Shown here piece by piece: positions 18,768 through 60,354 of a stretch of 64,000 bases of DNA. The DNA lies in the NCBI GenBank assembly GCA_947445775.1, contig CANFEB010000001.1:80484-144483 (forward strand). Direction: 5' to 3'. The stretch comes from Oligoflexales bacterium. GTDB lineage: Bacteria > Bdellovibrionota_B > Oligoflexia > Oligoflexales > RGVZ01. Each line of letters begins with the position of its first letter. Within the stretch, counting starts at the first letter, position 1. The notes below the pieces were generated by a model. That model did no database searches. It saw nothing but the letters and a program-made list of their open reading frames with translations, and was not told the DNA's origin. Both the position numbers and the translations under genes were made by a program.

Positions 18768-18948
18768 GTGATCACGCCACCTGGGAAAGTTCGCAAAGAA
18801 ATTTTCGGTAATTACGCCTGGTAATATCATCTCGCAAAACGGGCTCGGCTTCAATTGCGAACCAATTCCAGTCGCGTTGCCTTAAACTGGTGGCTATCAA
18901 AGATTCTGGTATAGTTTTAGTTGGGGCGAAAATCGGGCGAGGACACCC

Positions 18949-19653: not shown

Positions 19654-19828
19654 ACTCTCAAGGGACTTGGGTGATTTTTTGCTTGCCGAACGGCGGCCGG
19701 TGACATAGTTAGCCTTCGAATCCAGTTTTTGAAATGACGCGAATCGAATTGTTTTTCCCATATAAGCCAGCGATTGGGCTGGTGTTTCTACAGGGCGCCG
19801 CAAATGCCCTTCTATGAGGAGACCGAAG

Positions 19829-20401: not shown

Positions 20402-20424
20402 ACAGACTTTAAGATTATTTTTTA

Positions 20425-20456
20425 ATAGCCGCTGGCGCGAAAGTGCCAGCGGCTAT
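20425..20456. terminator. 12-bp perfect hairpin between convergent genes
   Basis: ATAGCCGCTGGC-GCGAAAGT-GCCAGCGGCTAT. It contains the TAG stop (20453-20455) of the 829-aa gene. There is no clean U-run on either side. Confidence 0.45.
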
Positions 20457-22942: not shown

Positions 22943-23096
22943 CCACCCTTTATTGGCGCAACCGCTCTTGGCGACTTAGACCGGTCTCGAGTTTAGTTTT
23001 CATGATATTTCTAGTTTACCATGAAAGCCGGATTATTCACGGTTGCGGCCGCCCCCCTGAGTCCGGTAGAATTCCTGAAACAAAAAGAGGCAAAAA

Positions 23097-23882
23097 ATGC
23101 TGCCATATCCGGACATTGACCCTGCAATCTTTACCATCGGCTGGTTTCAACTGCGGTGGTATTCCCTGATGTACATCATCGGCCTTGTTGCCTCGTTTCT
23201 ATTTCTACGGCGCGCGGCACGGAATGGCAGACTTCAGATGACCGACGAACAGATCGAAACCAGCCTCGTTTACGCGTTGATTGGAATGATCCTCGGTGCC
23301 CGCATCGCCTACGTCTTCATCTACAACTTCGATTACTACCGCAATCATTTGAGTGAAATGCTCATGATCTGGCAGGGTGGACTGTCATTCCACGGTGGTT
23401 TTGTCGGCTTGATCACAGGTCTGTTCATTTTTTGCCGCCTCAATAAAATCGAATACCTGAATGTTACCGACAACGTTGCTGCGATCATTCCCGTCGGCCT
23501 CGGTTTCGGCAGGCTTGGAAACTTCATCAACGGCGAATTGTGGGGGCGGGTAACGGATGTTCCCTGGGCGATGGTATTTCCAACTGGCGGACCACTTGCA
23601 CGGCATCCATCACAAATTTATGAGTCGTTTCTCGAAGGCTGGTTTTTGCTGGCACTGACGCTGTTCGTATACTCGCGAAAACCAAAAACCGGGGTGGTGT
23701 CAGCAACTTTTATCCTTGGTTATGCAAGCTTCAGATTCATTGGGGAATTTTTCCGCGAGCCCGACGCACAGCTCGGCACAGTCCTTGGTCCCTTTTCAAT
23801 GGGTCAGGTCCTGTGCGCCGTGATGTGGCTGTTTGGAGCTTTTATCTTTATGTTGTCCCAGTCAAAGACCCGGCGAGCCTGA
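23097..23882 (+). CDS. lgt: prolipoprotein diacylglyceryl transferase
   Basis: 261 aa. WQGGLSFHGGF and GRLGNFINGELWGR. Confidence 0.9.
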   Translation: MLPYPDIDPAIFTIGWFQLRWYSLMYIIGLVASFLFLRRAARNGRLQMTDEQIETSLVYALIGMILGARIAYVFIYNFDYYRNHLSEMLMIWQGGLSFHGGFVGLITGLFIFCRLNKIEYLNVTDNVAAIIPVGLGFGRLGNFINGELWGRVTDVPWAMVFPTGGPLARHPSQIYESFLEGWFLLALTLFVYSRKPKTGVVSATFILGYASFRFIGEFFREPDAQLGTVLGPFSMGQVLCAVMWLFGAFIFMLSQSKTRRA

Positions 23883-24800
23883 CGCGGGTGCTGGAGCAGC
23901 AACTGGCGCTGGCGCTGGAGCAGTAACTGGCGCGGATACTGGCGCTGGAGCAGTAACTGGCGCGGACGCCGGCGCAGCAACTGGCGCGACAGCCGGTTTT
24001 GCGGCCGGATCGACCGCACCCAAGGCAGCAGATTTAGCAGATTCCTTTTCAACGGGAAGATCATCTTTCGGCAGACCTTTGCAATCAGCAAATTCCTGCC
24101 GCAACGATGAGTTCATCTCCTTGAGCAAGTCGTATTCCTTGCCCGACCGAACCCGACCAAAATACTCACTCAACTTCACCGACTTATCGGCACTCATAGT
24201 TTCAAGGATCAACGTCACTTGCTTCTGACGCAGGCGCTTGAACATGGCAACCACGAGGTCGTCATCCATCTTTTCGAATACTGGGGCGGCCTTTTTTGGC
24301 TCCATCTTGTCGTACAACTGCACGAGTTTATCGAGGCGTTCGCCCTTCAAATCCTTTTCTTGCTGAATATTCTGGGCGAAAAACTTGCGTTCCTCCTCCA
24401 GACGTTTCAGCTTGCCGTCGATCGACTGTTCAAGACCCTGAAGTTGCTTTTCGCGTTTTCCAAGCAGCATGACTCGTTCATCGATTTGCTTTTTTTTGCG
24501 GTCCGCCATGGACAGATAGCGGGCCACGTCTTCTTTCTGCAACTTATCCCGATTAAGGGTCGGCAGCTCTAATAAATCATCGAGAAAACTTTTGCGACCA
24601 GCGTCAGCCGGCGCGGCGCCCTGCGCGCTGCCGCCACCTACTGGATCACCGCTGCCCGCAGCATGCAGGTCCGCCTCGCCAAAATGAAGATAGCCTGATT
24701 GGACTGCCAAAAAAACGCCCAGAAGACCGACCTTCGCGCCGGCAACCCATTTGATCCAGGCAGGAAACCCGCTGCGAGACTTTTCAAATACATGAATCAT
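23862..24800 (-). CDS. flagellar MotE/FlbB/YlxF-like protein (MgtE_N-type domain) with an Ala/Pro-rich tail
   Basis: KLVQLYDKMEPKKAAPVFEKMDDDLVVAMFKRLRQKQVTLILETMSADKS. Sits after fliJ, as ylxF does in fla operons. Its 3' end overlaps lgt by 21 nt. Confidence 0.65.
   Translation of the reverse strand: MIHVFEKSRSGFPAWIKWVAGAKVGLLGVFLAVQSGYLHFGEADLHAAGSGDPVGGGSAQGAAPADAGRKSFLDDLLELPTLNRDKLQKEDVARYLSMADRKKKQIDERVMLLGKREKQLQGLEQSIDGKLKRLEEERKFFAQNIQQEKDLKGERLDKLVQLYDKMEPKKAAPVFEKMDDDLVVAMFKRLRQKQVTLILETMSADKSVKLSEYFGRVRSGKEYDLLKEMNSSLRQEFADCKGLPKDDLPVEKESAKSAALGAVDPAAKPAVAPVAAPASAPVTAPAPVSAPVTAPAPAPVAAPAPASGSPGL
23887..23994. repeat. degenerate ~30-bp tandem array (2 near-perfect units plus partials)
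   Basis: GGCGCTGGAGCAGTAACTGGCGCGGA occurs at 23911 and 23941. Encodes (APVTAPAPVS)n in the MotE-like tail. Confidence 0.75.
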
Positions 24801-24806
24801 AATTCG

Positions 24807-25256
24807 TTACCTCGAATTCAAGAATCTACGGAGTGCAATGTCGTCATGGCCCTTTTGCTCATTGCGAGAAATTTCCTTTTTAAATCTTTCGCGATGGGTT
24901 TCCTGGAGTTTCTCTACCGCACTGAGTTCACGCTGGACAATGTTGACCCGCATCACTTGGGCCTGTTCAGCAAGGTCCGCCTCTTTGAGCCTCTGAAAAA
25001 AAACAAATAGAGTCTCACGTGCGTGATCAACGGCCGCCTCAAGAGCCAACAGCATCGGCCGTTCTACCGACTCGCGTTCCGCATTCAATCGCGTCACGCC
25101 GTTCAAATACTTTTGCTGCCAGGCCATCAATTCCGATTCCAACTTGACCTTCTCGCGCAAAATCGCTGCCAGTGCGACGGCTTCGGCATCTACCCGTGTT
25201 TTTTTTATGTCCAACACTGGCACGAGCCGGGCAATTTTTTTAAGATGCTTCTGCAT
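24807..25256 (-). CDS. fliJ: flagellar export chaperone FliJ
   Basis: 149-aa coiled-coil protein immediately downstream of fliI. Confidence 0.55.
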   Translation of the reverse strand: MQKHLKKIARLVPVLDIKKTRVDAEAVALAAILREKVKLESELMAWQQKYLNGVTRLNAERESVERPMLLALEAAVDHARETLFVFFQRLKEADLAEQAQVMRVNIVQRELSAVEKLQETHRERFKKEISRNEQKGHDDIALRRFLNSR

Positions 25257-25289
25257 TCAGCGTTTCCATCTTCAGCAACGAAATCAAAA

Positions 25290-26663
25290 TTACATTCGGC
25301 CAGCCAAAATCCCGCGCACCGCAACCAGTGCCTCATCAAAGGTCGAAACCTCATCGATATCCTGACGCAAAAAACGTTCAATCTGCGGCATCAATTGAAT
25401 GGCCAGATCAAGCTGAGGATTTGTTCCCTGCTGATACGTTCCGATCTGAATGTAATCGTAATTTTCTTCGTAAACACCCAACAGCGACCGCAGTTTGTTG
25501 GCGATCGCCCAATGATCCTTCGAAACAATGTCGAACATGACGCGGCTGGCACTTGTCGGGACATCGATAGCCGGAAAATGGCCCTTGGACGCCAAGGATC
25601 TTGACAGGTTGATGTGGCCATCAAGGATTGATCGGGCAGCATCTGGAATCGGGTCGTTGAAGTCATCGCCGTCGACAAGGACGGTATAAAGTCCACTGAT
25701 ACTTCCTGAGCCTTCTGGCATTGGCCCGCAACGCTCCAATAGTCTTGGCAGCAATGAAAACGTCGACGGCGGATAGCCCTTGGTCGTGGGCGGTTCACCG
25801 ACAGCTAGACCAATTTCACGTTGCGCCATGGCCACGCGGGTCAGAGAGTCCATCATCAATAGAACGCGTTTACCTTGAGCGGCAAAATACTCAGCGATTG
25901 CCGTCGTCAGCTTTGCCCCACGTAGGCGCATGAGGGGAGATTGATCTCCCGTCACCACCACCACCACAGATCGTGCCAGGCCCTCTGGGCCCAAATCGCG
26001 CTCAAGAAATTCCCTGACTTCCCGACCGCGCTCACCGATCAAACCAATCACGTTGATGTCGGCAGACGATCCCCGGGCAATCATGCCCATCAACACGGAT
26101 TTACCGACCCCAGAGCCGGACATGACGCCAATGCGCTGCCCCTCGCCAAAGGTCAAAAGACCATCCATGGCGCGAATGCCCAGGGTCAAGTGACGATCAA
26201 TCCTCTTTCGTTCCATCGGGTTAGGCGCCGCTCGATCCAACGGCACCGTGGCGCATGACCCCGGAATGGCCACCCCCAATTTTCCCGTGAGCGGTTGCGC
26301 CATCGGATCAATGACCTTACCAATAAGATGATCGCCAACCACAACATTGTCAAAACGGTGGATTGCGGTCACGGCGCAACCAGGAGCAATGCCGCCAAGG
26401 TTGTTGTAGGGTAAAATCAGAGAACGATCCCCGTGGAAGCCGACCACTTCACCCAAAACCTCTCCCTGTTGGCCACCAATGGCAATGGAGACAATCGTCC
26501 CCAACTGAGATCCGGGCAAAAAAGCCTCAATGACGGTACCGACAACATCGCAAACCTTGCCGCGGGGATCCCAGTTGATATGGGAAAATGAACGGGCCAG
26601 ATCACCCCGAGAAAATTGCCGCAGATTCACTGAATTTTTTGCGCTGTCTTCCACTGGCATCAA
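25290..26663 (-). CDS. fliI: flagellum-specific ATPase FliI
   Basis: Walker A GSGVGKSVLMGMI and Walker B LLMMDSLTR. ATGA overlap with fliH. Confidence 0.95.
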   Translation of the reverse strand: MMPVEDSAKNSVNLRQFSRGDLARSFSHINWDPRGKVCDVVGTVIEAFLPGSQLGTIVSIAIGGQQGEVLGEVVGFHGDRSLILPYNNLGGIAPGCAVTAIHRFDNVVVGDHLIGKVIDPMAQPLTGKLGVAIPGSCATVPLDRAAPNPMERKRIDRHLTLGIRAMDGLLTFGEGQRIGVMSGSGVGKSVLMGMIARGSSADINVIGLIGERGREVREFLERDLGPEGLARSVVVVVTGDQSPLMRLRGAKLTTAIAEYFAAQGKRVLLMMDSLTRVAMAQREIGLAVGEPPTTKGYPPSTFSLLPRLLERCGPMPEGSGSISGLYTVLVDGDDFNDPIPDAARSILDGHINLSRSLASKGHFPAIDVPTSASRVMFDIVSKDHWAIANKLRSLLGVYEENYDYIQIGTYQQGTNPQLDLAIQLMPQIERFLRQDIDEVSTFDEALVAVRGILAGRM

Positions 26664-27964
26664 CTCGCTTTCCCGGTCTTATCGTCTTTGGCAAACAACG
26701 TGACATCGGCCTGGCTGAGAAGATTCTTCACCATCTTTTTTGCCTGGACATCCACCACACTCAACTGGGATTCGAGGCGGAATTCCCACGGAGCAATATT
26801 TTGGTCCTTAACCAAGTGAGTTTCCAGATCCTTGATGCCAGCTTTTGCCATGGCGTCAGCCGTTTCTGGATTCACGCGAATTTTGAACTGGTCGCCCTTA
26901 ACAGTTTCCGAGACGGCCTTACGCATGATCGTTGCAAATGAATCTGGGCGGATCTCGAATTCGCGCTCCAAAAGCGCCTCGCCCATGGCCTGGCAAAGAT
27001 CAAAAAAGTTCTGCTGAACATTGTCCAGAATCTGACCTTTCAAGGACTCAAACTCCCGGATCAACTCGGTAGCCCGACCGAAAAACTGACTAGCAGTCTG
27101 ACGCGCGCCTAATTCACCCTTTTCCTCGCCAGTTCTGAAACCCGTCTGATAGCCTTCCTGGAACCCCGCGTCCTGTCCGGTTTTACGTCCCTCTTGTTCG
27201 GCAGCATCCTTGGCCTCGGCCACAGCCTTAGCCATCTCGCCCTCCATCTCCTTACGGACTTTCCAGGCTTCGGCCGCCGTCTTCTCAACCGTGTTTGCCG
27301 ATTCACCTTCGCCACCAGAAGTTGCGAGAGGAATGAAGGAACCTGATCCCACGGCTGTGGTTTTCGTCTTTTCATCGCGATTGATGCGAAATGATCCTGC
27401 CTCGCGCTCGAGCGAGGTAACCTCCTGGCGGGGGGTATCCGAAGCCTCTTTCGCACCCTCAGCGGTCTCGGACCAGCCATCTACCGCTGATGTCGCGGCA
27501 GTGGATGGCGCAGCCTCGGATGATGATGCCCCAAAATCCTGTGGGCTCGCATGGCCCGCCGAATCACCCTCACCAAAGATCATTGCAAGCTGGCGCTGGC
27601 CCTCGTCACTAAGTTCCATGGCGTCGTCACCTCGTCCTATCCGGCGCCGCCGACCGGTTGAGGGAGAAATGGCGTCACTCCATTCCGGCGTAAAATCGAC
27701 CGGCTTGATGATAAACCGGTCGCCGTCTTGCGACTTCAACGCCTGATCAAATTTTGGATGCACCAAGACCGTTTTCTTCAAATCCGCATCGGTGTGCAGG
27801 CGGGCATGAATGATGGTCGAGTCCTCATTGTCAAATGAGGCCATGGGTGTCGGGCAGATCTCTTCAAACGAATAAGCGACCACCGCAACATGTTTGATTA
27901 ACCGGTCATTGGCCTTGATGAAGCGGCCCGCTCGTTTTTGACCATCCGTGTTCATCGTTGCCAT
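26660..27964 (-). CDS. fliH: flagellar assembly protein FliH with a ~230-aa N-terminal extension
   Basis: C-terminal ~200 aa: GFQEGYQTGFRTGEEKG...FKIRVNPETADAM...RLESQLSVVDVQAKKMVKNLL. ATG at 27964 (M4 of the ORF). Confidence 0.65.
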   Translation of the reverse strand: MATMNTDGQKRAGRFIKANDRLIKHVAVVAYSFEEICPTPMASFDNEDSTIIHARLHTDADLKKTVLVHPKFDQALKSQDGDRFIIKPVDFTPEWSDAISPSTGRRRRIGRGDDAMELSDEGQRQLAMIFGEGDSAGHASPQDFGASSSEAAPSTAATSAVDGWSETAEGAKEASDTPRQEVTSLEREAGSFRINRDEKTKTTAVGSGSFIPLATSGGEGESANTVEKTAAEAWKVRKEMEGEMAKAVAEAKDAAEQEGRKTGQDAGFQEGYQTGFRTGEEKGELGARQTASQFFGRATELIREFESLKGQILDNVQQNFFDLCQAMGEALLEREFEIRPDSFATIMRKAVSETVKGDQFKIRVNPETADAMAKAGIKDLETHLVKDQNIAPWEFRLESQLSVVDVQAKKMVKNLLSQADVTLFAKDDKTGKAS

Positions 27965-27969
27965 GATGA

Positions 27970-29586
27970 TCAAGCCCCCTGGTTAGGAGTAAGGATCATT
28001 CTGATGGCCTCAACGGTCCGCTTGGGATCGTTCTTGGCCACGTACATGATTTGGTCTTGAGGCGTCATTTTATCAAAAGGCACTTCTTCTTTAACGTGGA
28101 GCGACTGGACCATGGACTGCTCTAGATCGGGCCTGTACTCCTCGATCACGGTGGCCTGGTGTTTGCGTTCATTATCGTAAGTCAACCAGCGGAAGTAGGG
28201 GCGTACTATAAAGGCAAAAAACAGAATCAACGAAACAGCAACCGCTATTGAAGTCGCAATGGTCGAGAAATATTCCCGCTTTTCTTGCGTCTCCATTGAG
28301 ATGACCTGGCGCTGTGCATTGTCGAGCTGAAACATCATGTTGGAAACTTGAACTTCATCGCGACCGTCTTTGAATCCCATGGCGCGCTTGACTAGTTCTT
28401 CAAGCTTTTTCATTTCCTCATCTGATCGCGGGTCAAATGCCGGTTTTACCCCATCACCAATAACCTCTTGTTTTCCGTCAACTAGAACTGCCGCTGTAAG
28501 GCGCCGAACGGTTCCAACAGGCATCAGCTTTTTGCTGACAGTCTTGGAGACTTCAAAGTTCACAAGTTCAGAGTCACGTTTATTTGAGGACGAATTTCCC
28601 GAACTGGACGGGGTTTCTTGTTCTCCCGGAACGTTGGACTTGCTTCCCGGAATGCCGGTCGGATTTAGCCCAGCCCCTTGCATGGCTTCCCCCGATGTGT
28701 TCCGGGAAACCACCGCTGTCTTGTCAGGGTCAACATCAGAGATGGTTTGCTCTTCTTGGGTAAAATCCACGGTGGCATCCACCTTGGCATCCACGCGGTC
28801 GTGACCAACGACCTTGCCAACGATGGAACGAATTTTTTCCTCGATCTCCCGTTCGACGGCCTGCTTATAGGCCAGCATTTCTTTGGTCATCTTGGTGGCA
28901 AAGTCCTCGGATTCAATCTTGGTCAGGAGCTTTCCCTCCTGATCGATAATGGAAATATTGTTGGGCTTAAGGCCCTCTACCGCCCGGGAAACAAGATGCT
29001 GGATGCCCCGAATTTGCTTTTCTTCAAGGGAAGATCCCCGTTTGCTCTTGATGTAGACAGACGCCGTGGGTTCTTTTTGCTCCTGCACAAACACCGATTG
29101 CTTTGGCAAGACAATATGCACGCGCGCCGAGTTGATGCCGTCAATTGACATTATGGTCCGAGATAGTTCACCTTGAATGGCCCTAAGCCGGTTGATCTGC
29201 TGTTCGAATTCTGTTCGGGCAAACTCTTGTTTGTCAAATTTTTCCCAGCCGACTACGCCATGCGCCGGAAGGCCTTCTTGGGAAAGTTGCAGGCGCAGGC
29301 TAAGTACGCGCTCTCTGGGGACCTTAACACCCTTGGAATCAACGACAAAATCATTGACCCCATTGCGCTTGAAGTGTTCCACGATGGCCTGAGAGTCCTC
29401 GGCGCTTAGGTCGATAAAAACATACTCGTACGGATCCTCACGCCCGGTGATCAAAAGCCCGGCCATAACCGCGAGCAACGCTGCCGCAATGACCCCGACG
29501 GTCATTTTGCGGGGCATTGACTGCGCATTCCAGAACGCGCTCGTCTGGGCCCAAACTTTGATGATGAAATCGCGAAGATTATTCAC
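27970..29586 (-). CDS. fliF: flagellar M-ring protein FliF
   Basis: 538 aa with an N-terminal TM segment, a YscJ/FliF-like region (LSAEDSQAIVEHFKRNGV...) and a C-terminal TM. Confidence 0.85.
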   Translation of the reverse strand: MNNLRDFIIKVWAQTSAFWNAQSMPRKMTVGVIAAALLAVMAGLLITGREDPYEYVFIDLSAEDSQAIVEHFKRNGVNDFVVDSKGVKVPRERVLSLRLQLSQEGLPAHGVVGWEKFDKQEFARTEFEQQINRLRAIQGELSRTIMSIDGINSARVHIVLPKQSVFVQEQKEPTASVYIKSKRGSSLEEKQIRGIQHLVSRAVEGLKPNNISIIDQEGKLLTKIESEDFATKMTKEMLAYKQAVEREIEEKIRSIVGKVVGHDRVDAKVDATVDFTQEEQTISDVDPDKTAVVSRNTSGEAMQGAGLNPTGIPGSKSNVPGEQETPSSSGNSSSNKRDSELVNFEVSKTVSKKLMPVGTVRRLTAAVLVDGKQEVIGDGVKPAFDPRSDEEMKKLEELVKRAMGFKDGRDEVQVSNMMFQLDNAQRQVISMETQEKREYFSTIATSIAVAVSLILFFAFIVRPYFRWLTYDNERKHQATVIEEYRPDLEQSMVQSLHVKEEVPFDKMTPQDQIMYVAKNDPKRTVEAIRMILTPNQGA

Positions 29587-29597
29587 TGGTCACTCCG

Positions 29598-29951
29598 TCA
29601 GACAGGCATCCGCATAACTTCTTGGTACGCTTCAAGGGCACGATTTCTGACTTGGACCATGAGATTGAAGGTCAGCTCTGCCGTCGATGTGGCGAGCATG
29701 GCCTCATGCAGATTCTCAGACTTTCCCGTAGCCACCGCCGTGGTCATCTTGTCTGCTGTCTTGGCACTTTCATTGACCTCAGAGACGCGGGCTTGCAACT
29801 GGTCAAAAAAAGACATTTTTCCGGTGGAAGCCGGAGTGTCCTGCTGAACAGGGGACGGCATGCCCGTCGTTGGACCTTCGCGACGGATTTCATTGAACCT
29901 CGCGAACAGGTCTTCTGCTGCTTTCGCTGAAATTGACATTTGTGAAGCCAT
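29598..29951 (-). CDS. fliE: flagellar hook-basal body protein FliE
   Basis: 117 aa. C-terminus TAELTFNLMVQVRNRALEAYQEVMRMPV. Confidence 0.75.
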   Translation of the reverse strand: MASQMSISAKAAEDLFARFNEIRREGPTTGMPSPVQQDTPASTGKMSFFDQLQARVSEVNESAKTADKMTTAVATGKSENLHEAMLATSTAELTFNLMVQVRNRALEAYQEVMRMPV

Positions 29952-29973
29952 GTCAGTCCTCCATCATTTCGGA

Positions 29974-30417
29974 TCAACGACCAATTTCCAGAGCCTTCAT
30001 CGCCATTTGCTTGGTTTCATTCAATGCGGTTGCATTCGCCTCATAGGCGCGCGTTGCCGAAATCATGTTCACCATTTCACTCATCACTTGAACGTTGGGC
30101 ATTTCAACGTAGCCATCAAGATCTGCATCTGGGTGCGACGGATCAAGAACCCGTCTCGGTGCGCCTTGATCCTGGTGGATTCCCGTCACTTGCACTTTGG
30201 CAAGCTTTGCATTGTAGGTTCCATCAAGGTAATCGCCGAACTGATCGCCCGTCGGTTTTGCCGTAAAAATAACGTCGCGGCGGCGATAGGCTCCGCCCTC
30301 TTCCGTGCGAGTCGTTTGGGCATTTGCCAGGTTAGTGCTTAATACGTTCATGCGCAGGCGTTGCGCCGACAGTGCGGACGAGCTAATCGCCATCGACTTG
30401 AAGGTGCTCATGCTCAA
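29974..30417 (-). CDS. flgC: flagellar basal-body rod protein FlgC
   Basis: LSAQRLRMNVLSTNLANAQTT; 147 aa. Confidence 0.9.
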   Translation of the reverse strand: MSMSTFKSMAISSSALSAQRLRMNVLSTNLANAQTTRTEEGGAYRRRDVIFTAKPTGDQFGDYLDGTYNAKLAKVQVTGIHQDQGAPRRVLDPSHPDADLDGYVEMPNVQVMSEMVNMISATRAYEANATALNETKQMAMKALEIGR

Positions 30418-30839
30418 CGGCCTCCACTGATGGCATACCGGAGCATGCCGAGTTTACGATTCAAAGTCTCCACGGATGCCCGGTACAAAATCTGGTTCTC
30501 AGAGAACTGGGCCATTTCCGTGTCGATGTCCACCGTGTTGCCATCGTGCGCTACAGATTCTGTTGGCCTGACGAAGACGTCTGGCCTGATCGTTCCGTCG
30601 GCCTGAGTGAAAGCGTTATGCAAATGTTTGGGGTTGTTGGTGCGAACTGGGATAGCCTCGCTGCCACCAGTCACTTCTTGCAGCTGCTTTTCAAAGTCAT
30701 AGCCAAGGGCGCGAAATCCCGGTGTCTCTGCATTGGCAATGTTGCTGGTGATCACCTGGCTGCGTCGCATCCGGTGACCCAATGCCGCGACTTGCACCTT
30801 GTCATTGAAATCGAACAAGCTATTAATGGCTTGGCTCAA
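30414..30839 (-). CDS. flgB: flagellar basal-body rod protein FlgB
   Basis: SQVITSNIANAETPGF; 141 aa; 4-nt overlaps on both sides. Confidence 0.85.
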   Translation of the reverse strand: MSQAINSLFDFNDKVQVAALGHRMRRSQVITSNIANAETPGFRALGYDFEKQLQEVTGGSEAIPVRTNNPKHLHNAFTQADGTIRPDVFVRPTESVAHDGNTVDIDTEMAQFSENQILYRASVETLNRKLGMLRYAISGGR

Positions 30840-31960
30840 GTTGCCCTCCCTGTCAGCGGTGCGATCACGTCGATCCCTTCCGCTGAAAACTCATTGATCT
30901 TATTGCGCAACGTGCGAAGGCTGATTCCAAGCGTCTTGGCTGCGTGAGTCCGGTTGCCCTGATGATGCTCAAGGGTCCGCAAAATGAACTGAGTCTCGAC
31001 AGCCTGCAGGGTCCGTCCGACGGGAAGGGCTTCAATCCATGCGTTGGCTGCGGAGTCTTGAAGGCCACCAACTCCCTCAAAGCCGAGGTCCACAGCCTGA
31101 ATGACGTCCGTTGTAGAAGTAACCACCGCGCGCTTGATGACATTCTGCAGCTCACGAACGTTGCCCGGCCATGTGTAGGCGCGCAAGGCCTTGCGAGCAT
31201 CGTCAGTAAGGCGAACGGGACTGCGCCCGGCCGCAATGCATTCTTTTTCAGCAATATGTTGCGCGAGCGCCTCAATGTCTGCCGGGCGTTGGCGTAGGGC
31301 CGGAACTTCGATGTGAAGGACATAAAGTCGGTAGTACAGGTCCTGCCTGAATTCACCCCTGGCAACCATTGCCATTGGGTCGACGTTGGACGTGGCAATG
31401 ATGCGGCCATTGAGAGAAACGTCGGAGTTGCCACCAAGACGGCGGACTTTGCGCTCTTCAATGACTCGCAGCAATTTTGACTGATTGCCAGCATCTATAT
31501 TCGTGACCTCATCCAAGAGTAGCGTGCCATTGTTGGCGCTTTCAACGAGTCCAATCCGGTCAGCAATGGCACCAGTGAAGGCTCCCCTTTGGAAACCAAA
31601 AAGTTCACTTTCAAACATCGTTGACGGGATTGCAGAACAGTTCACTGCAACAAACGGACCAGCAGAAAATACTGACCGGGCATGAATGTACCGGGCAATT
31701 GTTTCCTTGCCGCAACCCGACTCACCAGTGATTAGAACTGGTAGGTTAACGGCTGCAATCTGGTCGGCAATTTCTTTGATACGGCGCATGGCTGGATCGG
31801 CAACAAGCCAACCACCATCGCAAATGAACGACTCGATGGGCGCGGGGGCTGCTTGCTTAGCCCGCGCATAGTCGACATAGGTAGCAGCAGATTCTGGCTG
31901 GCCAGCCGGCCTGGAACCTGCCTGCGAAACAAGATCTTTACGAAGGGCTACGTTGTTCAT
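30836..31960 (-). CDS. sigma54-dependent transcriptional activator (AAA+ plus HTH, no receiver or sensor domain)
   Basis: LITGESGCGKE, ELFGFQRGAFTGA (GAFTGA), LLLDEV, C-terminal HTH NRTHAAKTLGISLRTLRNKI. Only about 55 aa precede the AAA+ core. Confidence 0.85.
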   Translation of the reverse strand: MNNVALRKDLVSQAGSRPAGQPESAATYVDYARAKQAAPAPIESFICDGGWLVADPAMRRIKEIADQIAAVNLPVLITGESGCGKETIARYIHARSVFSAGPFVAVNCSAIPSTMFESELFGFQRGAFTGAIADRIGLVESANNGTLLLDEVTNIDAGNQSKLLRVIEERKVRRLGGNSDVSLNGRIIATSNVDPMAMVARGEFRQDLYYRLYVLHIEVPALRQRPADIEALAQHIAEKECIAAGRSPVRLTDDARKALRAYTWPGNVRELQNVIKRAVVTSTTDVIQAVDLGFEGVGGLQDSAANAWIEALPVGRTLQAVETQFILRTLEHHQGNRTHAAKTLGISLRTLRNKINEFSAEGIDVIAPLTGRAT

Positions 31961-31990
31961 CGAATCACTCCGTTCGATATTTTGTGCGGC

Positions 31991-32012
31991 GCGGAACTCA
32001 CGCGGAACTCAC
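31991..32012. repeat. 11-bp tandem direct repeat GCGGAACTCAC x2 in the activator leader
   Basis: Read directly, 31-52 nt upstream of the activator ATG (31960). Confidence 0.8.
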
Positions 32013-32024
32013 ATTGTTTGAAAA

Positions 32025-34334
32025 CTATTTCTTCTGGATCTGGGTCAGCCTTTCGGTGGCCAGATTTGCATAAAAAAGATTGTTGCCATCAGCCTTAGCC
32101 TTCTCAAGTGCAGCCACGGCCTCATCCTTGCGGCCGGCCCGGTAGAGCAGCAAGCCGGCTTTGTAGAGCGTCTCTGCGCGTCCCTCCCAATTTTCGCTTT
32201 CGGCGGCAACTAGGCTGAAAATGCGACCGGCATCTAGGTATTCATTGTCCTTGCGGTATTCCTCGCCCAGCTCCAACAACTGGTCCATCCAGGCTTTACG
32301 CGCCGCCTTGTCATCGCCAAATTGAGATGGTTTCATCTCACGCAACATATCCAGAGCAGCGCGGCGCTCTTTTTCCATTCCAAGAACAGAAAATCGCGCG
32401 GCAAGACTGGAAATCAATTTTGCAGAAGCCGCCGATGGCGCGAATTCATTTTTGAGGTCCGGAGTCGCCGGTCCAGTCGATGTTGTTTGGCGGGCGCTGA
32501 AATTATCCTTCCATGACGACAGAATCAATTTGGCAGGGGTGCGCAATTTGGCGGCCAAGCCGAGTGATGACTCCAGTGGCTGGCGAAAGGCTGCATACAA
32601 CTGTTCGCGCTCTGTTGGTTTGAGCCCTGCCAAGGTGGCCGCCATTGCGCGGTCAGCTTCGATCATGTGGCGGTTGAAGGGAGAGATCTTAGTCTGACCT
32701 GATTTGATGCGAGTCAATAATTCAACGGATTCAGACGCCGTTTGGGCCAACCAGAATTGCGCCTTGAAACGGTCAACTCCCGTGCCTTCCTTGGCAGCCG
32801 AATCGTAGAAGTCAACGGCGGCTTGGGGCTGACCAATGCTTCGGTATGACTCGCCAAGTGCCCAGGCCGTCTTAGGGTTTTTGCGGACCGATTGCAGGGG
32901 TCTTGGCAACAATTCAAAAGTCTGTACGGCCTCCACATGACGCCCTGCCAGCGATTGCTCCTGAAGCAATCCATCCAGACGAAGGCGCAGGCGCGTCAAG
33001 AGTTCAGCGCGCATCGGATCAAATTCTGCGGTTTTGTAATCACGAAAATAATTTGCGGCGAAGTTTCCAGCATCCACCGTCCAATTGCGACGACTATCTA
33101 GGCGGGCGGCCAACAAGAGGGATGCCGTCAAAAATCTTGTCCTAGGATGAGTCAGACTAGGAAATGCTGATTCAAGATCACGGACCTCCATCTCGTCCAG
33201 TTCGGGAATTGGTGATTTAGTTTTCGCAGAGGCGTTACGCCAAAAAGATGTTCTAAGGACTTTGCCGGCCCGATAGTCTGGGGAGGCCGTCGCAACGTCG
33301 AGTGCTGCCAATGCCGGGGCAACTTTTGGCAAAATATCAGTTTCGCCAGCGATTGCGGCCTCCGTGGCGTGGACGTCGATCAGACGCATGGCGGCCAGGG
33401 AATGAAACGGCGTGCCTGGAAATCGTTTCGTGATCGTGTCGTAATAGCCGCCGGCTAAAGATAAATTCCCCTGGCCAAGGTGGATCTCCGCCATGCGCCA
33501 AAGGCTGGCCGGGTCCCGTTCAATCGCTAGCGGATCATGGAATAGCAGTTGCTGATAGACGGACATCGACCGGAGCTCTTCGCCGTTGGCAAACAGGTCC
33601 GCGGCGAGGTCCGACAAACCTTTTGTCGATGCCATGGCCTTGGCACATGCCTCCACCGGAATTTCGCCGGCGTACTTGGATTTTGCGGTAAGGGAGTCAA
33701 ATCGGTAAACGGGATCGCTCAAACGATCCCACGAAGCGGCGCGACCGGGCTTGGCCTGTTTCAACTGGCTGCACAGGTCAGCCGCATTTTCGAACTTTTT
33801 TGGGGCAGGCTGAAAAATTCTGCGCTGAGAGGCCGGTTCTGTTGGTTTCGCGGCAGGCACATTCTGCGCAAGGGCCGGTTTGAGGTCATTGCCCGTCACT
33901 GGCAACCCATCTGTGGTTCGTGCTGGGGTGTATCCCCGTTTGAAAATCGCGACCACGAGCCGAAATGGCTCCTCGAAATCATTGACCGTTGCGACGACAT
34001 CGCGAGACTTCAGCTTCATCATGATCTCGACACCATCAGCGCCTCTGTCTTTGACCAGAAGGCGGCGAATGAGGTCCTCGTCGTAGCGCTCAAGGGCTTG
34101 CAATTCTGTCGATGAGGTTTTTAGGATTTCGATCCTGACCGTGTTTTCGACTGCGTCATACTTCGCCGTGTAGGGGCGGGTGTCGGGAAAGGGCAGGACA
34201 ATCTCCGAATAATCGGCTGCGATCGCGGGGGCACTTTGCAGACAAAGCACCATTGCAGTCACCGGCGCCAGAGCTTGGGACGCAAAGCGCAGGGTTTTAA
34301 CATGGAGAATCCATGACCGTGAACGGGAGCCCAT
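32025..34334 (-). CDS. secreted TPR-repeat protein (769 aa) heading the flagellar cluster
   Basis: Signal peptide ...SAPAIA-AD and an N-terminal beta-module (possibly AMIN-like, PFRLVVAIF). TPR-like C-terminus (AETLYKAGLLLYRAGRKDEAVAALEKA). Confidence 0.6.
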   Translation of the reverse strand: MGSRSRSWILHVKTLRFASQALAPVTAMVLCLQSAPAIAADYSEIVLPFPDTRPYTAKYDAVENTVRIEILKTSSTELQALERYDEDLIRRLLVKDRGADGVEIMMKLKSRDVVATVNDFEEPFRLVVAIFKRGYTPARTTDGLPVTGNDLKPALAQNVPAAKPTEPASQRRIFQPAPKKFENAADLCSQLKQAKPGRAASWDRLSDPVYRFDSLTAKSKYAGEIPVEACAKAMASTKGLSDLAADLFANGEELRSMSVYQQLLFHDPLAIERDPASLWRMAEIHLGQGNLSLAGGYYDTITKRFPGTPFHSLAAMRLIDVHATEAAIAGETDILPKVAPALAALDVATASPDYRAGKVLRTSFWRNASAKTKSPIPELDEMEVRDLESAFPSLTHPRTRFLTASLLLAARLDSRRNWTVDAGNFAANYFRDYKTAEFDPMRAELLTRLRLRLDGLLQEQSLAGRHVEAVQTFELLPRPLQSVRKNPKTAWALGESYRSIGQPQAAVDFYDSAAKEGTGVDRFKAQFWLAQTASESVELLTRIKSGQTKISPFNRHMIEADRAMAATLAGLKPTEREQLYAAFRQPLESSLGLAAKLRTPAKLILSSWKDNFSARQTTSTGPATPDLKNEFAPSAASAKLISSLAARFSVLGMEKERRAALDMLREMKPSQFGDDKAARKAWMDQLLELGEEYRKDNEYLDAGRIFSLVAAESENWEGRAETLYKAGLLLYRAGRKDEAVAALEKAKADGNNLFYANLATERLTQIQKK

Positions 34335-34392
34335 GGGACCTCTCGCGTGGTTCGCAAAGTGAACATTTCTAGTCTCTGAGTCTTTTAGCTAG

Positions 34393-34408
34393 AGCAAGGG
34401 TCGTGCCA
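34393..34408 (-). promoter_or_regulatory. sigma54 (-24/-12) promoter
   Basis: Minus strand reads TGGCACGACCCTTGCT, an exact match to TGGCACG-N4-TTGCW. The GC element lies about 60 nt upstream of the TPR gene ATG (34334). Confidence 0.75.
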
Positions 34409-34645
34409 ACGGACAGACCAGCGCAAGTACCGTTGAACCCTGCACATTTTTCACCCGAAAGTTTCTTCCGGCCAAAATTCTGCAGGGTGCAATTTTGGCA
34501 CAGGAAGGTTCTGCCTCTGCCAAAGATCCGGCGGGAATTGGCCATGGCTCGTCAAGTCACTGACGCATTCGCCAAAGTTCTGGCTGCTTAAGAACACTCC
34601 GGGTCACATTGGATGGGGAACCTGATTTTTTTTTGAAACTTTTCC

Positions 34646-34672
34646 TAAAGTGACGACAAGATTGGTCGATAA
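34646..34672 (+). promoter_or_regulatory. sigma28 (FliA)-type promoter
   Basis: TAAA-N15-GTCGATAA, against the consensus TAAA-N15-GCCGATAA. Lies 56 nt upstream of the PilZ ATG at 34728. Confidence 0.55.
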
Positions 34673-34727
34673 GTATCTAGGCGTTGGTTTTGGTTTATCG
34701 GGCAAACATCAGGATCATTGGGATAAA

Positions 34728-35087
34728 ATGACACAATTCCGAATCAGGTCAAAACGAGTGGAGACCCGCCGATTTCGGGTATCCGGCCGCGCCGTTGGGC
34801 GTATTGTGACCTTGTCCGGCGACCGTTTACTCACCGTCAGGCCAACGGATGTTTCTCGGCGGGGCCTGGGCTTCATCGCCAAGGAACCGTTGCCTCATGG
34901 CGGCCAGTTTTGGTTTGAAATCGACGAGGCCCGCCTGCGGGTCGAGGTCATCCACTGTCATTCACACCTTGGCATTGAAAACATGTATCACTGCGGAATT
35001 TTCACCCGGGATCCCGACATCGACTTGGAGCAAGTCTTTGCACAACTGGGGTTGCTGGAAGAAGCCCTTCAGGCTGATGGCTTTTGA
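34728..35087 (+). CDS. single-domain PilZ protein (c-di-GMP receptor candidate)
   Basis: RRFRVSGR...TDVSRRGLGF matches RxxxR...D/NxSxxG. ATG 34728 was chosen because the ORF-track GTG at 34650 lies inside the putative promoter. Confidence 0.65.
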   Translation: MTQFRIRSKRVETRRFRVSGRAVGRIVTLSGDRLLTVRPTDVSRRGLGFIAKEPLPHGGQFWFEIDEARLRVEVIHCHSHLGIENMYHCGIFTRDPDIDLEQVFAQLGLLEEALQADGF

Positions 35088-37444
35088 ATCGCAGACATTA
35101 CGCCCGCCAAGGACACATCCCGTTTACGGATCACCGGGAAATCCACGCCGCTTTCCAGATGACTAAGATCCCAGTCGCTGCAAATGACAATATCAAGAAC
35201 ACCCGCTAACCGAGCGCGCTGAGCCAGGGCCACGCCATCCATGCCGCCTCCATCAAACTGATAATCCGTGACGAGAATGGGAGATCGCGACAAGATTCCG
35301 ACGTCTTCCGCAAGGTTCACCAAAAATTCATCGGGTGTCCCGAATACAATGATGTCGGCATCGTTTGACTGGCGCTCCCACATGTCGCGCACAAAGGGAC
35401 TGTCGTCAACCACAACAAGAAGCCTGCGGCGAAGCATCTGGTCACGCAGTCCTGAGAGTGGCCCACTGCGCATGATCAGATTCATGTCCGGTAGGCCGCG
35501 GTCAACTGGGATGGAAACCTCTATGGTCAGAATGCCGGTTGCCGGGACATGATTATAGCGGACTAGACCGCCCATGGATTCGGCCAGGCGCTTAATGATC
35601 ACCAGACCAAGGCCCCGGGATTCCTTACGGCCCCTGATCCGTCCTTCCTCAAAAACGGAAAAATCGGCGGCGGAAAAATCAGGCGCAACATTGCTCACCG
35701 TCAGCAGACAACATGGGGTTGAGTTATCGTCGTTGTTTGGGTTGTTAATTGCGCCTTCACTCGTCAGAATTTGAATGACGGAACTTCGAGGCGATGCCGC
35801 CGCCGCATTGTCCAGCAAGTTATCGACGATTCGACGCATCGCCACCGGATCACCACACAGCTTGGAGCGATGTCCCCAGGTGGTCTTGAAATCAACCCCA
35901 CGCCCCTCAAAGGAAGGCAGCAAAGCCGCCAGCGAGGCCTCGGTAATATCCAGCACCGAAAAACTTTTTCGTGTTGGATTGTGGCCTATCAGGTTTTGGT
36001 CCTGTTCAAGGGCAGTCAATTCAACCAAAAATCCGTCAAGGTAAGCCAAATTTTGGGAATCTTTGAGTTTCACGATGCGACGAAGGTCGTGGACAATCAT
36101 TCGGGCCTGGCGGGCCATGGCTGATTTCGCAATCTGCGTGGCCGACAAGTCCAAGCCAATCTTGTCCATCCGCGCGTCGCGGCGGGCTGACCTTTTGATC
36201 AGCTCAAAAAGAAATGGAATCAGCGCAGCGAGAGCCGCCGAGGTCGCAGATAACCCGGTTAAATGTTGCGTCCACAACGCCCCCACAAAACAAAGACCCG
36301 TCCAGATCAGACCCAGAATCATTGCCGCAGCCAACTTGTTTATCATTGCGATCAACAGACCAATCACTGCCATCAGGACAATCGCAAAGGGCGACCAGTT
36401 TGAAACTGGAATAGAAAATATTCCATCAAGGCTTGCCGAGCTGATCACCGCAAGGCGCGAAAGCAGTGGTGAGTCAGCTGGGCCGACGATAACCAGCAGG
36501 GGAATCTGATGCTGGGTTTGCCCATCTGACTTTCCCTGCTCCAACAAGGCGTCGATTGACTCGGGTGCAAATGCTAAAAAATCCCGCTGTGACAAGGCTG
36601 GTGCTGCTAATAGACCCTTATGAATGGCGACTTCCCGGACACCGACCATGACCCTGCCATTAGATATCGAAGCCCCCAATAAAGCCTCGCGGGGCGTCAA
36701 AGCCAAGTCTGCGACGAATCGGTCTTCCCGCCAGCGTGCGATTGGCATCAAAAAATCAGAGTCGCCGCCCACCAAACCATAGCCGGCTAAAACATCTGCA
36801 AACTCTGGAGAAGGCCCAACTAAGATTCTGTGGGAAATATCCGGGATTTTCTGCAAATCCATAAGGGTGGTTGCCTGCCTCGAATTGGCCAGATCCTGAA
36901 TGAACCTTTCCACCGGTGTGCCAAACAGCAATGGGTCAGCAGAAATAACTCCTGGCCGAGGATCCACGAACCTCAGTGGTGCATAGACTTTCATGCCCGC
37001 TGCCGCAGCCTCGCGAAAAACATCAAGAAATCCAGGCGTGGTTGCGTTGACTCTGGAAAAAATGGACTCCTCGGGAATCACGACCTGGGTGGCGCCCAGC
37101 GAACGGATGGCCGCAAAAATCTCCCGCCAGTCTTCAACCCCAGGTGACAACCGCCCAGTGCGTCTACGCCAGGGCTCATCCCACCCAAAAGACCGGATTC
37201 GGGAATCAGGTTTACGAAAATTTAAATCCTGAAAATCTTTTGAAAAAAAGCGCCGCGTGCGAATTTCCACTGTGTCACGCAAGCCGATACCAAGGGACGA
37301 AAATGCCAAATAAGACGCGCCAAAGGCCGCCATCGCGGTAACGGCAAGCGAGGTCTTTGAAATCCGGGTGAACCAGCGGATCCAGTCGTATGGATTCATG
37401 CGTAATATGGACGTCATGGGTTTCATGGGTTTCATGGGTTTCAC
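35069..37444 (-). CDS. hybrid sensor histidine kinase (CHASE2-like periplasmic domain, HK core, C-terminal receiver)
   Basis: H-box region ARMIVHDLRRIV, N-box IVDNLLDNAAAAS, G-box SRGLGLVIIKRLAESMGG, REC LLVVVDDSPF...LVTDYQFDGGGMDG. Confidence 0.65.
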   Translation of the reverse strand: MKPMKPMKPMTSILRMNPYDWIRWFTRISKTSLAVTAMAAFGASYLAFSSLGIGLRDTVEIRTRRFFSKDFQDLNFRKPDSRIRSFGWDEPWRRRTGRLSPGVEDWREIFAAIRSLGATQVVIPEESIFSRVNATTPGFLDVFREAAAAGMKVYAPLRFVDPRPGVISADPLLFGTPVERFIQDLANSRQATTLMDLQKIPDISHRILVGPSPEFADVLAGYGLVGGDSDFLMPIARWREDRFVADLALTPREALLGASISNGRVMVGVREVAIHKGLLAAPALSQRDFLAFAPESIDALLEQGKSDGQTQHQIPLLVIVGPADSPLLSRLAVISSASLDGIFSIPVSNWSPFAIVLMAVIGLLIAMINKLAAAMILGLIWTGLCFVGALWTQHLTGLSATSAALAALIPFLFELIKRSARRDARMDKIGLDLSATQIAKSAMARQARMIVHDLRRIVKLKDSQNLAYLDGFLVELTALEQDQNLIGHNPTRKSFSVLDITEASLAALLPSFEGRGVDFKTTWGHRSKLCGDPVAMRRIVDNLLDNAAAASPRSSVIQILTSEGAINNPNNDDNSTPCCLLTVSNVAPDFSAADFSVFEEGRIRGRKESRGLGLVIIKRLAESMGGLVRYNHVPATGILTIEVSIPVDRGLPDMNLIMRSGPLSGLRDQMLRRRLLVVVDDSPFVRDMWERQSNDADIIVFGTPDEFLVNLAEDVGILSRSPILVTDYQFDGGGMDGVALAQRARLAGVLDIVICSDWDLSHLESGVDFPVIRKRDVSLAGVMSAIQKPSA
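37415..37441. repeat. 9-bp tandem repeat CATGGGTTT x3 at the kinase 5' end
   Basis: Encodes MKP-MKP-MKP-M; each unit supplies an in-frame ATG. Confidence 0.9.
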
Positions 37445-37619
37445 GCGTTTCTTGCAGCCTGAGAAAGAAAATCAATACAAAAAAACTGGAACGGCATCCC
37501 TCCGTTGTTTCGGCCTACGCTTCGCCTTCTGAAGCCCTTTACCCGGCCGTATCACGCCGCAAATTTGTCCAAAGACCAAAAATCGGTGATAATCACCCTT
37601 CATTCTGGAAGGTTGCTCC

Positions 37620-38342
37620 ATGACCAAGTCCATCACAATCAATGCCTTGAAATTTGCCTATCCCAGCCACGAGGATGTAATCGACATCGACCACCTCGCC
37701 ATCTCGTCCGGAGAACGGATTTTTGTCCATGGACCATCGGGGTGCGGCAAGACGACATTGCTTGGATTGATGTCAGGAATCCTCACAGGGCCGCGCGGAA
37801 GCATTGAACTTCTCGGCCGTGATTTGCAGGGCATGACGCCAGCACAACGCGACCGTTTCCGGGGCGAACATATCGGTTATTTATTTCAAATGTTCAATCT
37901 GCTGCCCTATTTGAGTGTCATAGAAAATATTATTTTGCCCCTGAGATTGAACCGTGGGCGGCTTGGAAAAATATCTGGGTCACGGGAATCTGCCCCGAAA
38001 AATCTAGCTATAAATCTAGCTAAATCTCTGGCCGAAACTCTGGGCATCGATCACCTACTGGATCGCAACGCGACAGAGTTGAGCGTCGGCCAGCAGCAAC
38101 GAGTTGCCGCCGCACGGGCCTTGATTGGAAATCCTGAGATCCTCATTTGCGATGAACCAACTTCCGCGCTGGACTCGGTTCATCGCGACCGTTTTCTGGA
38201 CCTTTTGTTGGGCATGAACGTCACCGGAAAAACCACCGTGATTTTTGTCAGCCACGATCAAAGCCTGGCTCACAGGTTTGATCGGACCATCGATTTGTCC
38301 ACGCTCAACCGCAGATTTCGTGCATCGACCGGCGACGATTAA
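37620..38342 (+). CDS. ABC transporter ATP-binding protein (MacB/LolD-like)
   Basis: GPSGCGKTTLL, LSVGQQQRVAAARAL, ILICDEPTSALD. Confidence 0.85.
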   Translation: MTKSITINALKFAYPSHEDVIDIDHLAISSGERIFVHGPSGCGKTTLLGLMSGILTGPRGSIELLGRDLQGMTPAQRDRFRGEHIGYLFQMFNLLPYLSVIENIILPLRLNRGRLGKISGSRESAPKNLAINLAKSLAETLGIDHLLDRNATELSVGQQQRVAAARALIGNPEILICDEPTSALDSVHRDRFLDLLLGMNVTGKTTVIFVSHDQSLAHRFDRTIDLSTLNRRFRASTGDD

Positions 38343-60337: not shown

Positions 60338-60354
60338 TTGGCTCATCGCAACAG
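60338..60354. repeat. 17-bp direct repeat, right copy
   Basis: Spans the last three codons and the stop (60343-60345) of the ATPase gene. Confidence 0.9.

Follow-up and report, generated by a model that had tools for sequence, protein, structure and literature searches.

How an early flagellar operon is switched on, and what an unusual first gene contributes to the motor, are the questions raised by a locus in a 64-kb stretch of DNA from an Oligoflexales bacterium (Bdellovibrionota), hereafter the window. On its minus strand lies a unit of ten genes spanning approximately 10.5 kb (34334 to 23862), in the order tetratricopeptide repeat (TPR) gene, sigma-54 activator, flgB, flgC, fliE, fliF, fliH-like, fliI, fliJ and MgtE_N gene. 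The locus is read here as the 5' end of an early flagellar operon in which a sigma-54 promoter, an enhancer, a PflA-like spoke and a self-acting activator are combined, and this reading, taken jointly for all of its parts, is on balance probable. The regulatory and structural module itself is real and well supported, being a lineage-specific variant whose components all belong to familiar classes: a flagellar promoter of the sigma-54 type and an enhancer of the FleQ type, with an activator of the NtrC family, a scaffold protein of the PflA/MotK class and an E-ring protein of the FlgY class. Particular to the lineage are the PflA-like gene at the head of a rod/MS-ring/export operon, the in-operon activator that is devoid of any sensor domain across the whole order, and the very clean conservation of the enhancer-promoter module.

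The promoter is represented by a −24/−12 element, TGGCACGACCCTTGCT (34393-34408, minus strand), an exact match to TGGCAC-N5-TTGCW that sits within an intergenic region of 315 bp. The GC of its −12 part lies 60 nt from the ATG (34334) of the open reading frame (ORF) of the 769-aa TPR protein, in agreement with an earlier note on this DNA, in which a textbook −24/−12 element was placed about 60 nt upstream of the TPR gene. All sequence features described in that note were confirmed, and its interpretation is supported. From the position of the element, a transcription start is predicted near 34383. No other exact match is found in the window, in which 0.09 would be expected, and a single exact match is weak evidence when taken alone because nine of 100 shuffled sequences also yielded at least one. 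This figure favors the rival explanation that the match is due to chance and that the operon is transcribed from a promoter of another type, as does the orthologous locus of Spirobacillus (Silvanigrellales), where no −24/−12 element precedes the TPR gene although the gene order is kept. It is the position and the conservation of the element that make the match strong evidence. Conservation was assessed in 47 related Oligoflexales loci having upstream DNA, and GG-N10-GC with at least nine of the 11 consensus bases was found in all 47 (perfect in 38, with TGGCAT in six), on the same strand and at a comparable distance before the TPR gene. The five spacer bases vary freely, and the promoter is kept while protein identity drops to about 30%. 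A scan of 924 kb of loci for TGGCA[CT]-N5-TTGC[AT] on both strands returned 46 sites, 44 of which were the promoter before the TPR gene, the element being almost absent elsewhere. Conservation in every one of the 47 loci around a variable spacer, together with the 44 of 46 sites located at the promoter, therefore constitutes a phylogenetic footprint by which chance is effectively excluded. Additionally, the element is always accompanied by an upstream palindrome and by an activator gene with a GAFTGA motif. The chance explanation is thus extremely improbable, and the promoter is almost certainly functional. No sigma-54 site was found before the activator gene or flgB in the scan of the loci. 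Sites with one mismatch elsewhere in the window were rejected, each being either internal to an ORF or damaged in its GC (18609-18624, minus strand, and 60018-60033, before an HNH gene); the former falls within a 387-aa ORF.

Upstream activator sites were looked for where the earlier note had suggested, and a conserved candidate enhancer was found there (within 34470-34580), the 14-bp palindrome GTCAGTGACTTGAC (GTCA-N6-TGAC, 34551-34564), 156 nt upstream of the −24 element. Of 48 upstream regions, that of the window included, 47 carry GTCA-N6-TGAC, located 74-157 nt ahead of the −24 element. A total of 61 copies fall within 8.2 kb of upstream regions, and the remaining 915 kb of the loci hold 13, which corresponds to chance level. 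These 13 copies were rejected as enhancers, being mostly inside genes and otherwise outside the mapped operon genes, with no promoter nearby. The Oligoflexus clade carries two copies of the palindrome, 30 bp apart, and the base preceding TGAC is mostly T (GTCA-N5-T-TGAC). The FleQ consensus has been published as GTCaNTAAAtTGAC for P. aeruginosa and GTCAaAAAAtTGAC for P. putida (both quoted in PMC6120874), and the half-sites and spacing of the palindrome match this consensus, a likeness that leaves the binding protein to inference. The palindrome is flanked on the minus strand by the conserved elements TTGGCG (34575-34570) and GGCCAA (34543-34538), and further conserved upstream elements are TTTGGCA (34524-34518), TGCCAAA (34500-34494) and TTTTGGCC (34477-34470). 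TTGGC[GA] (complement GCCAA) is enriched 6.7-fold over background, being present in 47 of 48 upstream regions, often as an outer inverted repeat around the palindrome.

The same arrangement was sought in metagenomes as GTCA-N5-TTGAC, followed after 60-90 nt by TGGCAC-N5-TTGCT, and at least 120 loci were found; 105 of the matches listed were followed by an ORF of 70 aa or more, and the counts that follow refer to the matches listed. At least 49 of the 105 downstream genes were flagellar. The largest group consisted of 21 loci with a gene for an SLT-domain protein of about 275 aa followed by flgB-flgC, and six downstream genes belonged to the TPR family of the window. In five loci, a gene for an activator of 400-474 aa was followed by fliE-fliF. 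The others included fliL (five), fliO (three), flhA (two) and fliP (two), and one each of flgF, flgB, motA, a sigma-28-like factor and a FleS-like kinase; type IV pilin and GGDEF genes were also found behind the composite. The composite precedes many flagellar genes and is therefore a recurrent flagellar enhancer-promoter design, not peculiar to the window locus. It is suggested that GTCA-N5-TTGAC combined with a sigma-54 element marks flagellar promoters in many bacteria, which could aid regulon annotation.

The coherence of the operon behind this promoter was evaluated across relatives. A scan of a genome collection with the TPR family gave 54 loci from metagenome-assembled genomes (MAGs) of Oligoflexales and Oligoflexus, from MAGs with broader or unplaced labels and from the cultured Oligoflexus tunisiensis Shr3. 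The gene order from the TPR gene to the MgtE_N gene was kept in 54/54 loci, as far as each contig extends, with identities of the TPR protein to that of the window ranging from 82% down to 26%. The TPR family is a narrow one. A word-indexed protein search yielded 17 TPR homologs, two further word-indexed searches with alignments returned only homologs already found (17 and 16), and an exhaustive profile search gave 201 cluster representatives (E <1e-3). Among the ten most distant representatives looked up, the only named cluster was that of Spirobacillus cienkowskii, with 16-19% identity, which keeps the order TPR gene, 364-aa activator, flgB, flgC, fliE and fliF. The co-conservation of the TPR gene with flagellar genes, on which the earlier note had made its reading depend, thus extends from the 54 loci to Spirobacillus. 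In the same S. cienkowskii sequence (CP146516.1), the module from the TPR gene to fliF is directly followed by a type VI secretion cluster (vipA, vipB, gp25, tssF), and a sigma-54-like site, TGGCCTAGAAATTGCT (locus positions 14953-14968, plus strand), lies about 80 nt before vipA.

Within the operon, the junctions of the downstream genes range from −4 to +33 nt, and the spacer of 64 nt between the TPR gene and the activator gene (31961-32024, minus strand), whose length had been given correctly before, is the longest. It contains a GGAG ribosome-binding site and a tandem repeat of GTGAGTTCCGC, present twice (32012-31991), and no intrinsic terminator was found in it. Orthologous spacers measure 8-118 nt, 8-60 nt in most loci, and often hold only a Shine-Dalgarno sequence. 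Given spacers of down to 8 nt, the two genes must be transcribed together from the sigma-54 promoter. The proposed co-regulation of the TPR gene with the flagellar genes is thereby borne out by the order kept in all 54 loci, the short spacers and the lack of a terminator. The perfect tandem duplication itself (31991-32012) is absent from the orthologous spacers, which are mostly much shorter.

The first product of the operon is a predicted periplasmic, PflA/MotK-like protein of 769 aa (32025-34334, minus strand), defined by its ORF, Pfam TPR matches and an AlphaFold model, and its gene has an AGAGG ribosome-binding site. It had been described as a large secreted protein with TPR and beta modules, and all of these elements were recovered. 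A signal peptide was read from the sequence at residues 1-39 (A-I-A/A at 37-40), and the AlphaFold2 model (predicted local distance difference test, pLDDT, of 82 for the full protein) displays an AMIN-fold beta-sandwich at residues 42-132 (nt 33939-34211), a disordered linker of low confidence at 138-175 and an alpha-solenoid at 184-768 (nt 32031-33785) with about 30 helices in about 15 helical hairpins. When the N-terminal domain was modelled alone (pLDDT 89), it matched the AMIN domains of AmiC (4BIN, TM-score 0.69, probability 1.0) and PilQ (TM-score 0.64). The structure prediction and Foldseek comparison recommended for this protein were carried out, and the best match in the PDB was found to be C. 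jejuni PflA from the periplasmic scaffold of the in situ motor (9hmf chain K, E 2.4e-8, full-length alignment). The matched chain has 773 residues, corresponding to PflA without its signal peptide. PflA has been described as a protein in which an unstructured linker joins an N-terminal beta-sandwich to 16 TPRs (PMC12222027). Feng et al. considered its N-terminal domain to be AMIN-like and reported that single-copy PflA-like TPR proteins encoded near flagellar genes are widespread; they paired these with FlgY/FlbB/MotE, an E-ring protein with an MgtE_N domain that is usually encoded beside fliJ (PMC11870540, PMC13023049). The window protein shares with PflA of C. jejuni and H. pylori its secretion, its near-equal size, the succession of AMIN-type beta-sandwich, linker and superhelix of about 15-16 TPRs, and a gene located among flagellar genes in a genome with an E-ring protein of the FlgY/FlbB type. 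The closest known proteins are thus PflA itself, the 'potential PflA homologs' of Feng et al. and the PflA-like protein of Bdellovibrio, WP_011165745.1.

The resemblance has its limits, and some of these support the rival explanation that the TPR protein is associated with the flagellum without being a structural spoke of the PflA type, its likeness to PflA being convergent. In such a case, it may be a periplasmic assembly factor or chaperone, or an AMIN-containing peptidoglycan-binding adaptor for passage of the rod through the cell wall or for transient positioning of stator units. The global TM-score to PflA is only 0.21, and generic TPR solenoids follow in Foldseek at 1e-6 to 1e-4, only one to four orders of magnitude weaker. 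Profile searches of PDB sequences with narrow and broad family alignments related the protein by sequence neither to PflA nor to any other solved structure, generic TPR matches excepted, and NCBIfam gave the TPR family only weak matches to the TPR proteins YbgF, BamD and PilW. No PflB-like partner was identified either. Furthermore, AMIN domains and TPRs are common building blocks, and convergent evolution was allowed for by Chaban et al., who proposed a PflA-like protein in the flagellar operon of Bdellovibrio and described a 12-fold ring associated with the inner membrane (PMC5758724). Nevertheless, the match to PflA is full-length and keeps the domain order, the similar size (769 aa against a chain of 773 residues) and some 15-16 TPRs, and the gene is always found at the same point of the rod/MS-ring operon, which also encodes a FlgY/FlbB homolog. 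The features published for the PflA class and its potential homologs (Drobnic et al., Feng et al.), namely secretion, beta-sandwich-linker-TPR architecture and a flagellar gene context with such a homolog, are all present, and the hallmarks of PflB, a transmembrane segment and an antiparallel beta pair in mid-protein, are lacking, as in the PflA class: the model has no strands after residue 132, and no hydrophobic segment beyond the signal peptide was seen on reading the sequence. Sequence homology to PflA is absent, and PflA-class proteins are not conserved in sequence according to the literature (Feng et al.; PMC11870540, PMC13023049). The earlier note had likened the protein to PflA while asserting no sequence similarity, and both halves of that statement agree with the fold, the architecture and the searches. 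The model and the gene context thus suggest that the TPR protein is quite probably a motor scaffold of the PflA type, the non-spoke alternative being unlikely. The window protein, known here from its sequence and model, differs from PflA in that no PflB partner was found and in being encoded first in a flgB-fliF operon under a sigma-54 promoter.

The likely partner of such a spoke is encoded by the last gene of the operon (23862-24800, minus strand), a FlgY/FlbB/MotE-type protein of 312 aa recognised by Pfam MgtE_N (PF03448, ARM-like; 29.5 bits against a cut-off of 25.9). From its sequence, an N-terminal transmembrane helix, a charged coiled coil, the MgtE_N domain and a Pro/Ala-rich tail were read. 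The gene starts 6 nt after fliJ, which is the synteny described for FlgY homologs, so that MgtE_N domain, transmembrane segment, coiled coil and fliJ neighbor are all found, and it stands at the end of the operon in most loci that reach that far. No meaningful sequence match to the PDB was obtained for it. The FlgY/FlbB type is the known class of E-ring partners of PflA-class spokes, and both partner types are thus held in one operon, the AMIN-TPR protein at its head and the MgtE_N protein at its tail. A comparable pair is formed by MotK of Cereibacter, which has an AMIN domain and TPRs and works with MotE (FlgY-type, MgtE_N) and the stator (PMC11870540, PMC13023049). MotK (Cereibacter sphaeroides Fla2), MotC (Sinorhizobium) and CC_2058 (Caulobacter), with MotE/CC_2059, are the same pair of protein types as in the window, a likeness drawn by description only; their genes are adjacent or in mot operons, whereas those of the window lie at opposite ends of a rod/export operon. 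The secreted AMIN-linker-TPR protein would most likely encircle the MS-ring and rod in the periplasm, as spokes or as a ring, and would link the E-ring, made of the FlgY/FlbB-type protein of the same operon, to peptidoglycan or stator units. To our knowledge, no motor structure exists for the Oligoflexales lineage. The present findings provide sequence-level, phylogenetic evidence that PflA-type AMIN-TPR and FlgY-type E-ring proteins are co-encoded in a core flagellar operon across the class Oligoflexia; earlier published support consisted mostly of gene proximity and predicted structures, plus speculation for Bdellovibrio. This co-encoding supports the view that the E-ring/spoke scaffold is ancient.

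The second product is a sigma-54 activator, or bacterial enhancer-binding protein, of 374 aa in its longest possible ORF (30836-31960, minus strand), with Pfam matches to Sigma54_activat, AAA_lid and HTH_8. Sigma54_activat (PF00158) covers residues 54-218 (2.1e-60) of an AAA+ core at 54-295, which carries Walker A GESGCGKE, Walker B LLLDEV and GAFTGA, and the Fis-type helix-turn-helix (HTH) of HTH_8 lies at 318-358 (2.9e-13). Only 53 residues precede the AAA+ domain, close to the 55 or so estimated before, and no receiver, GAF or FleQ domain is present, as had also been claimed. In all loci with a complete gene, the longest possible ORF encodes 354-402 aa and Walker A lies at residue 62-100, and therefore none of these domains is possible in any ortholog. 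The N-terminal regulatory domain that is typical, although not obligatory, for enhancer-binding proteins (receiver, GAF, PAS, V4R or FleQ) is thus missing. The N-terminal tail is variable except for a Y-x-x-Y/F motif, with Y28 in 96% and Y31 in 83% of sequences, and the HTH, GNRTHAAKTLGISLRTLRNKINEF, is nearly invariant among orthologs. The closest solved relatives are FlrC, NtrC1/NtrC4, ZraR, FlrA and FleQ, all with similar scores and with V. cholerae FlrC as the best PDB match; the best NCBIfam family is FlbD (NF050807), at 372 bits against a cut-off of 750 and over model positions 121-452 only.

In the mechanism proposed, sigma-54 RNA polymerase would bind the −24/−12 element at 34408-34393, and an NtrC-family AAA+ activator seated on the GTCA-N6-TGAC enhancer about 150 bp upstream would open the promoter by DNA looping and ATP hydrolysis. 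That activator may well be the AAA+/HTH-only protein encoded second in the operon, which most likely binds the upstream palindrome; it would then turn on the operon that encodes it, forming a positive-feedback switch, and would probably act on further flagellar sigma-54 promoters. Self-activation is the most economical explanation because an invariant HTH and invariant half-sites are strictly linked in one locus. On these sequence grounds, the chances that the activator acts on its own promoter appear evenly balanced. As the protein has no sensor domain, its activity must depend on how much of it is present or on a trans-acting partner.

A different allocation of roles has to be weighed at this point, in which a sensor-bearing master activator of the FleQ/FlrA kind, encoded elsewhere, uses the enhancer and the 374-aa activator serves only later promoters, such as those for hook and filament. 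By analogy, this would correspond to FlbD in the Caulobacter fliF operon, or to FlrC/FleR acting downstream of FlrA/FleQ. Both the FlbD core, the best match in NCBIfam (372 bits), and FlrC, the best in the PDB, belong to second-tier flagellar activators, and the cascade would explain how the operon is first switched on, which pure self-activation through sigma-54 leaves difficult. Moreover, in other bacteria the same composite is found before flagellar genes of many kinds, and its binder could be a general master regulator. Conversely, no second activator was seen in the window or in the 20-kb loci, palindrome and activator HTH are both nearly invariant and always linked in one locus, and the five metagenome loci, among the matches listed, with an activator gene directly behind the composite indicate that self-linked activators occur. 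A cascade of this kind is regarded as rather unlikely but is a serious rival. At its most elaborate, self-activation would make the operon a self-contained sigma-54 commitment switch, in which the FleQ-box activator acts on itself and is gated only in trans through the YxxY peptide, and the PflA-like spoke is made first; this is put forward tentatively and, in all its details, is doubtful. The trans partner may then sense the assembly state or a second messenger, and may be a FliX-like protein or the divergently encoded PilZ-like protein. If true, this would place a FlgY-PflA scaffold of E-ring and spokes, together with a regulatory logic of its own, at the base of the Bdellovibrionota, independent of the elaborations of Campylobacterota.

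Apart from the Spirobacillus locus without a −24/−12 element and the shortcomings of the likeness to PflA, three further observations weigh against the joint reading of promoter, enhancer, spoke and self-acting activator. No rpoN-sized candidate was found among the scanned ORFs of the window. A self-activated operon needs some basal supply of the activator, for which a weak sigma-70-like match inside the TPR gene was all that was seen. Lastly, the type strain O. tunisiensis Shr3 has the complete operon, the promoter and two enhancer palindromes, yet was described as non-motile, with flagella not seen (PMC4179278). A single flagellum has been reported for an FD111-like Oligoflexales bacterium (PMC12865303), and expression of the operon may be conditional in O. 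tunisiensis.

The activator can be compared with several known systems. FleQ and FlrA are likewise sigma-54 AAA+ proteins with a Fis-type HTH that serve early flagellar genes, and the candidate site has the layout of a FleQ box; the window activator differs in having no N-terminal FleQ domain, and its AAA+ core is no nearer to FleQ than to FlrC or NtrC1. FlbD of Caulobacter crescentus is the best family match for the AAA+/HTH core, and the flbD gene lies within the early operon for the MS-ring (fliF), its product being controlled in trans by FliX, not by phosphorylation. However, the window activator scores far below the family cut-off (372 against 750) and lacks the receiver-like domain (model 1-120), and the early operon of the window, unlike that of the FlbD system, is itself predicted to be sigma-54 dependent. 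PspF and HrpR/HrpS have the same plan of an AAA+ core and HTH with no N-terminal sensor, PspA and HrpV, respectively, controlling them in trans. Their regulons are different, no PspA- or HrpV-like partner was identified here, and in the window protein a conserved YxxY peptide precedes the AAA+ core. A compact cis-regulatory module is thus defined, in which a FleQ-type box and a sigma-54 promoter are combined with a sensor-less activator encoded in the operon, in a lineage that includes predators of algae and bacteria and for which we know of no studies of flagellar regulation.

The genes downstream of the activator conform to the order flgB-flgC-fliE-fliF given in the earlier note, and all were identified by family matches. 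They comprise flgB (30414-30839, Pfam/NCBIfam, TTG start), flgC (29974-30417), fliE (29598-29951) and fliF (27970-29586), all on the minus strand and separated by junctions of −4 to +22 nt. The stop of the activator gene overlaps the start of flgB, as had been noticed, the TGA/TTG overlap being read as TTGA at 30839-30836. The export genes that follow on the same strand are fliH-like (26660-27973), fliI (25290-26663) and fliJ (24807-25256), the last two assigned by family matches, and lgt lies beyond the end of the operon on the opposite strand. The FliH-like protein, of 437 aa, has a long N-terminal extension; its FliH match is confined to the C-terminal 130 residues or so, and its N-terminal 220 residues, approximately, are of low complexity or without assigned function. 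In neither the window nor any of the 54 related loci does a fliG gene separate fliF from fliH, and fliG must therefore be encoded elsewhere. An Rfam scan of 23000-38000 gave no RNA family.

Two neighbors are located on the upstream side. An ORF of 145 aa (34650-35087, plus strand), divergent from the operon promoter region, has a weak match to PilZ (E 9e-4, below the cut-off); it occupies the same position in the closest relatives, several of the more distant loci have a similar upstream ORF, and its product may be a partner of the flagellar module linked to cyclic di-GMP. The next gene (35069-37444, minus strand) encodes a membrane protein of 791 aa with a HATPase_c match only, no HisKA and the N-terminus MKPMKPMKPM, and it is found upstream of the operon only in the closest relatives (five loci, L001-L005).

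Elsewhere in the window, a run of ORFs without Pfam matches extends over 17691-22942 and encodes proteins of 829 aa (20453-22942, minus strand), 195 aa, 234 aa and 387 aa, the first of which gave no meaningful sequence match to the PDB. Three paralogous AAA_14/DUF4143 ATPase genes are scattered at 9260-10303, 45438-46289 and 60343-61563, the first of them within a stretch of lower GC content (8-12 kb, 0.45-0.47 compared with about 0.54 elsewhere).

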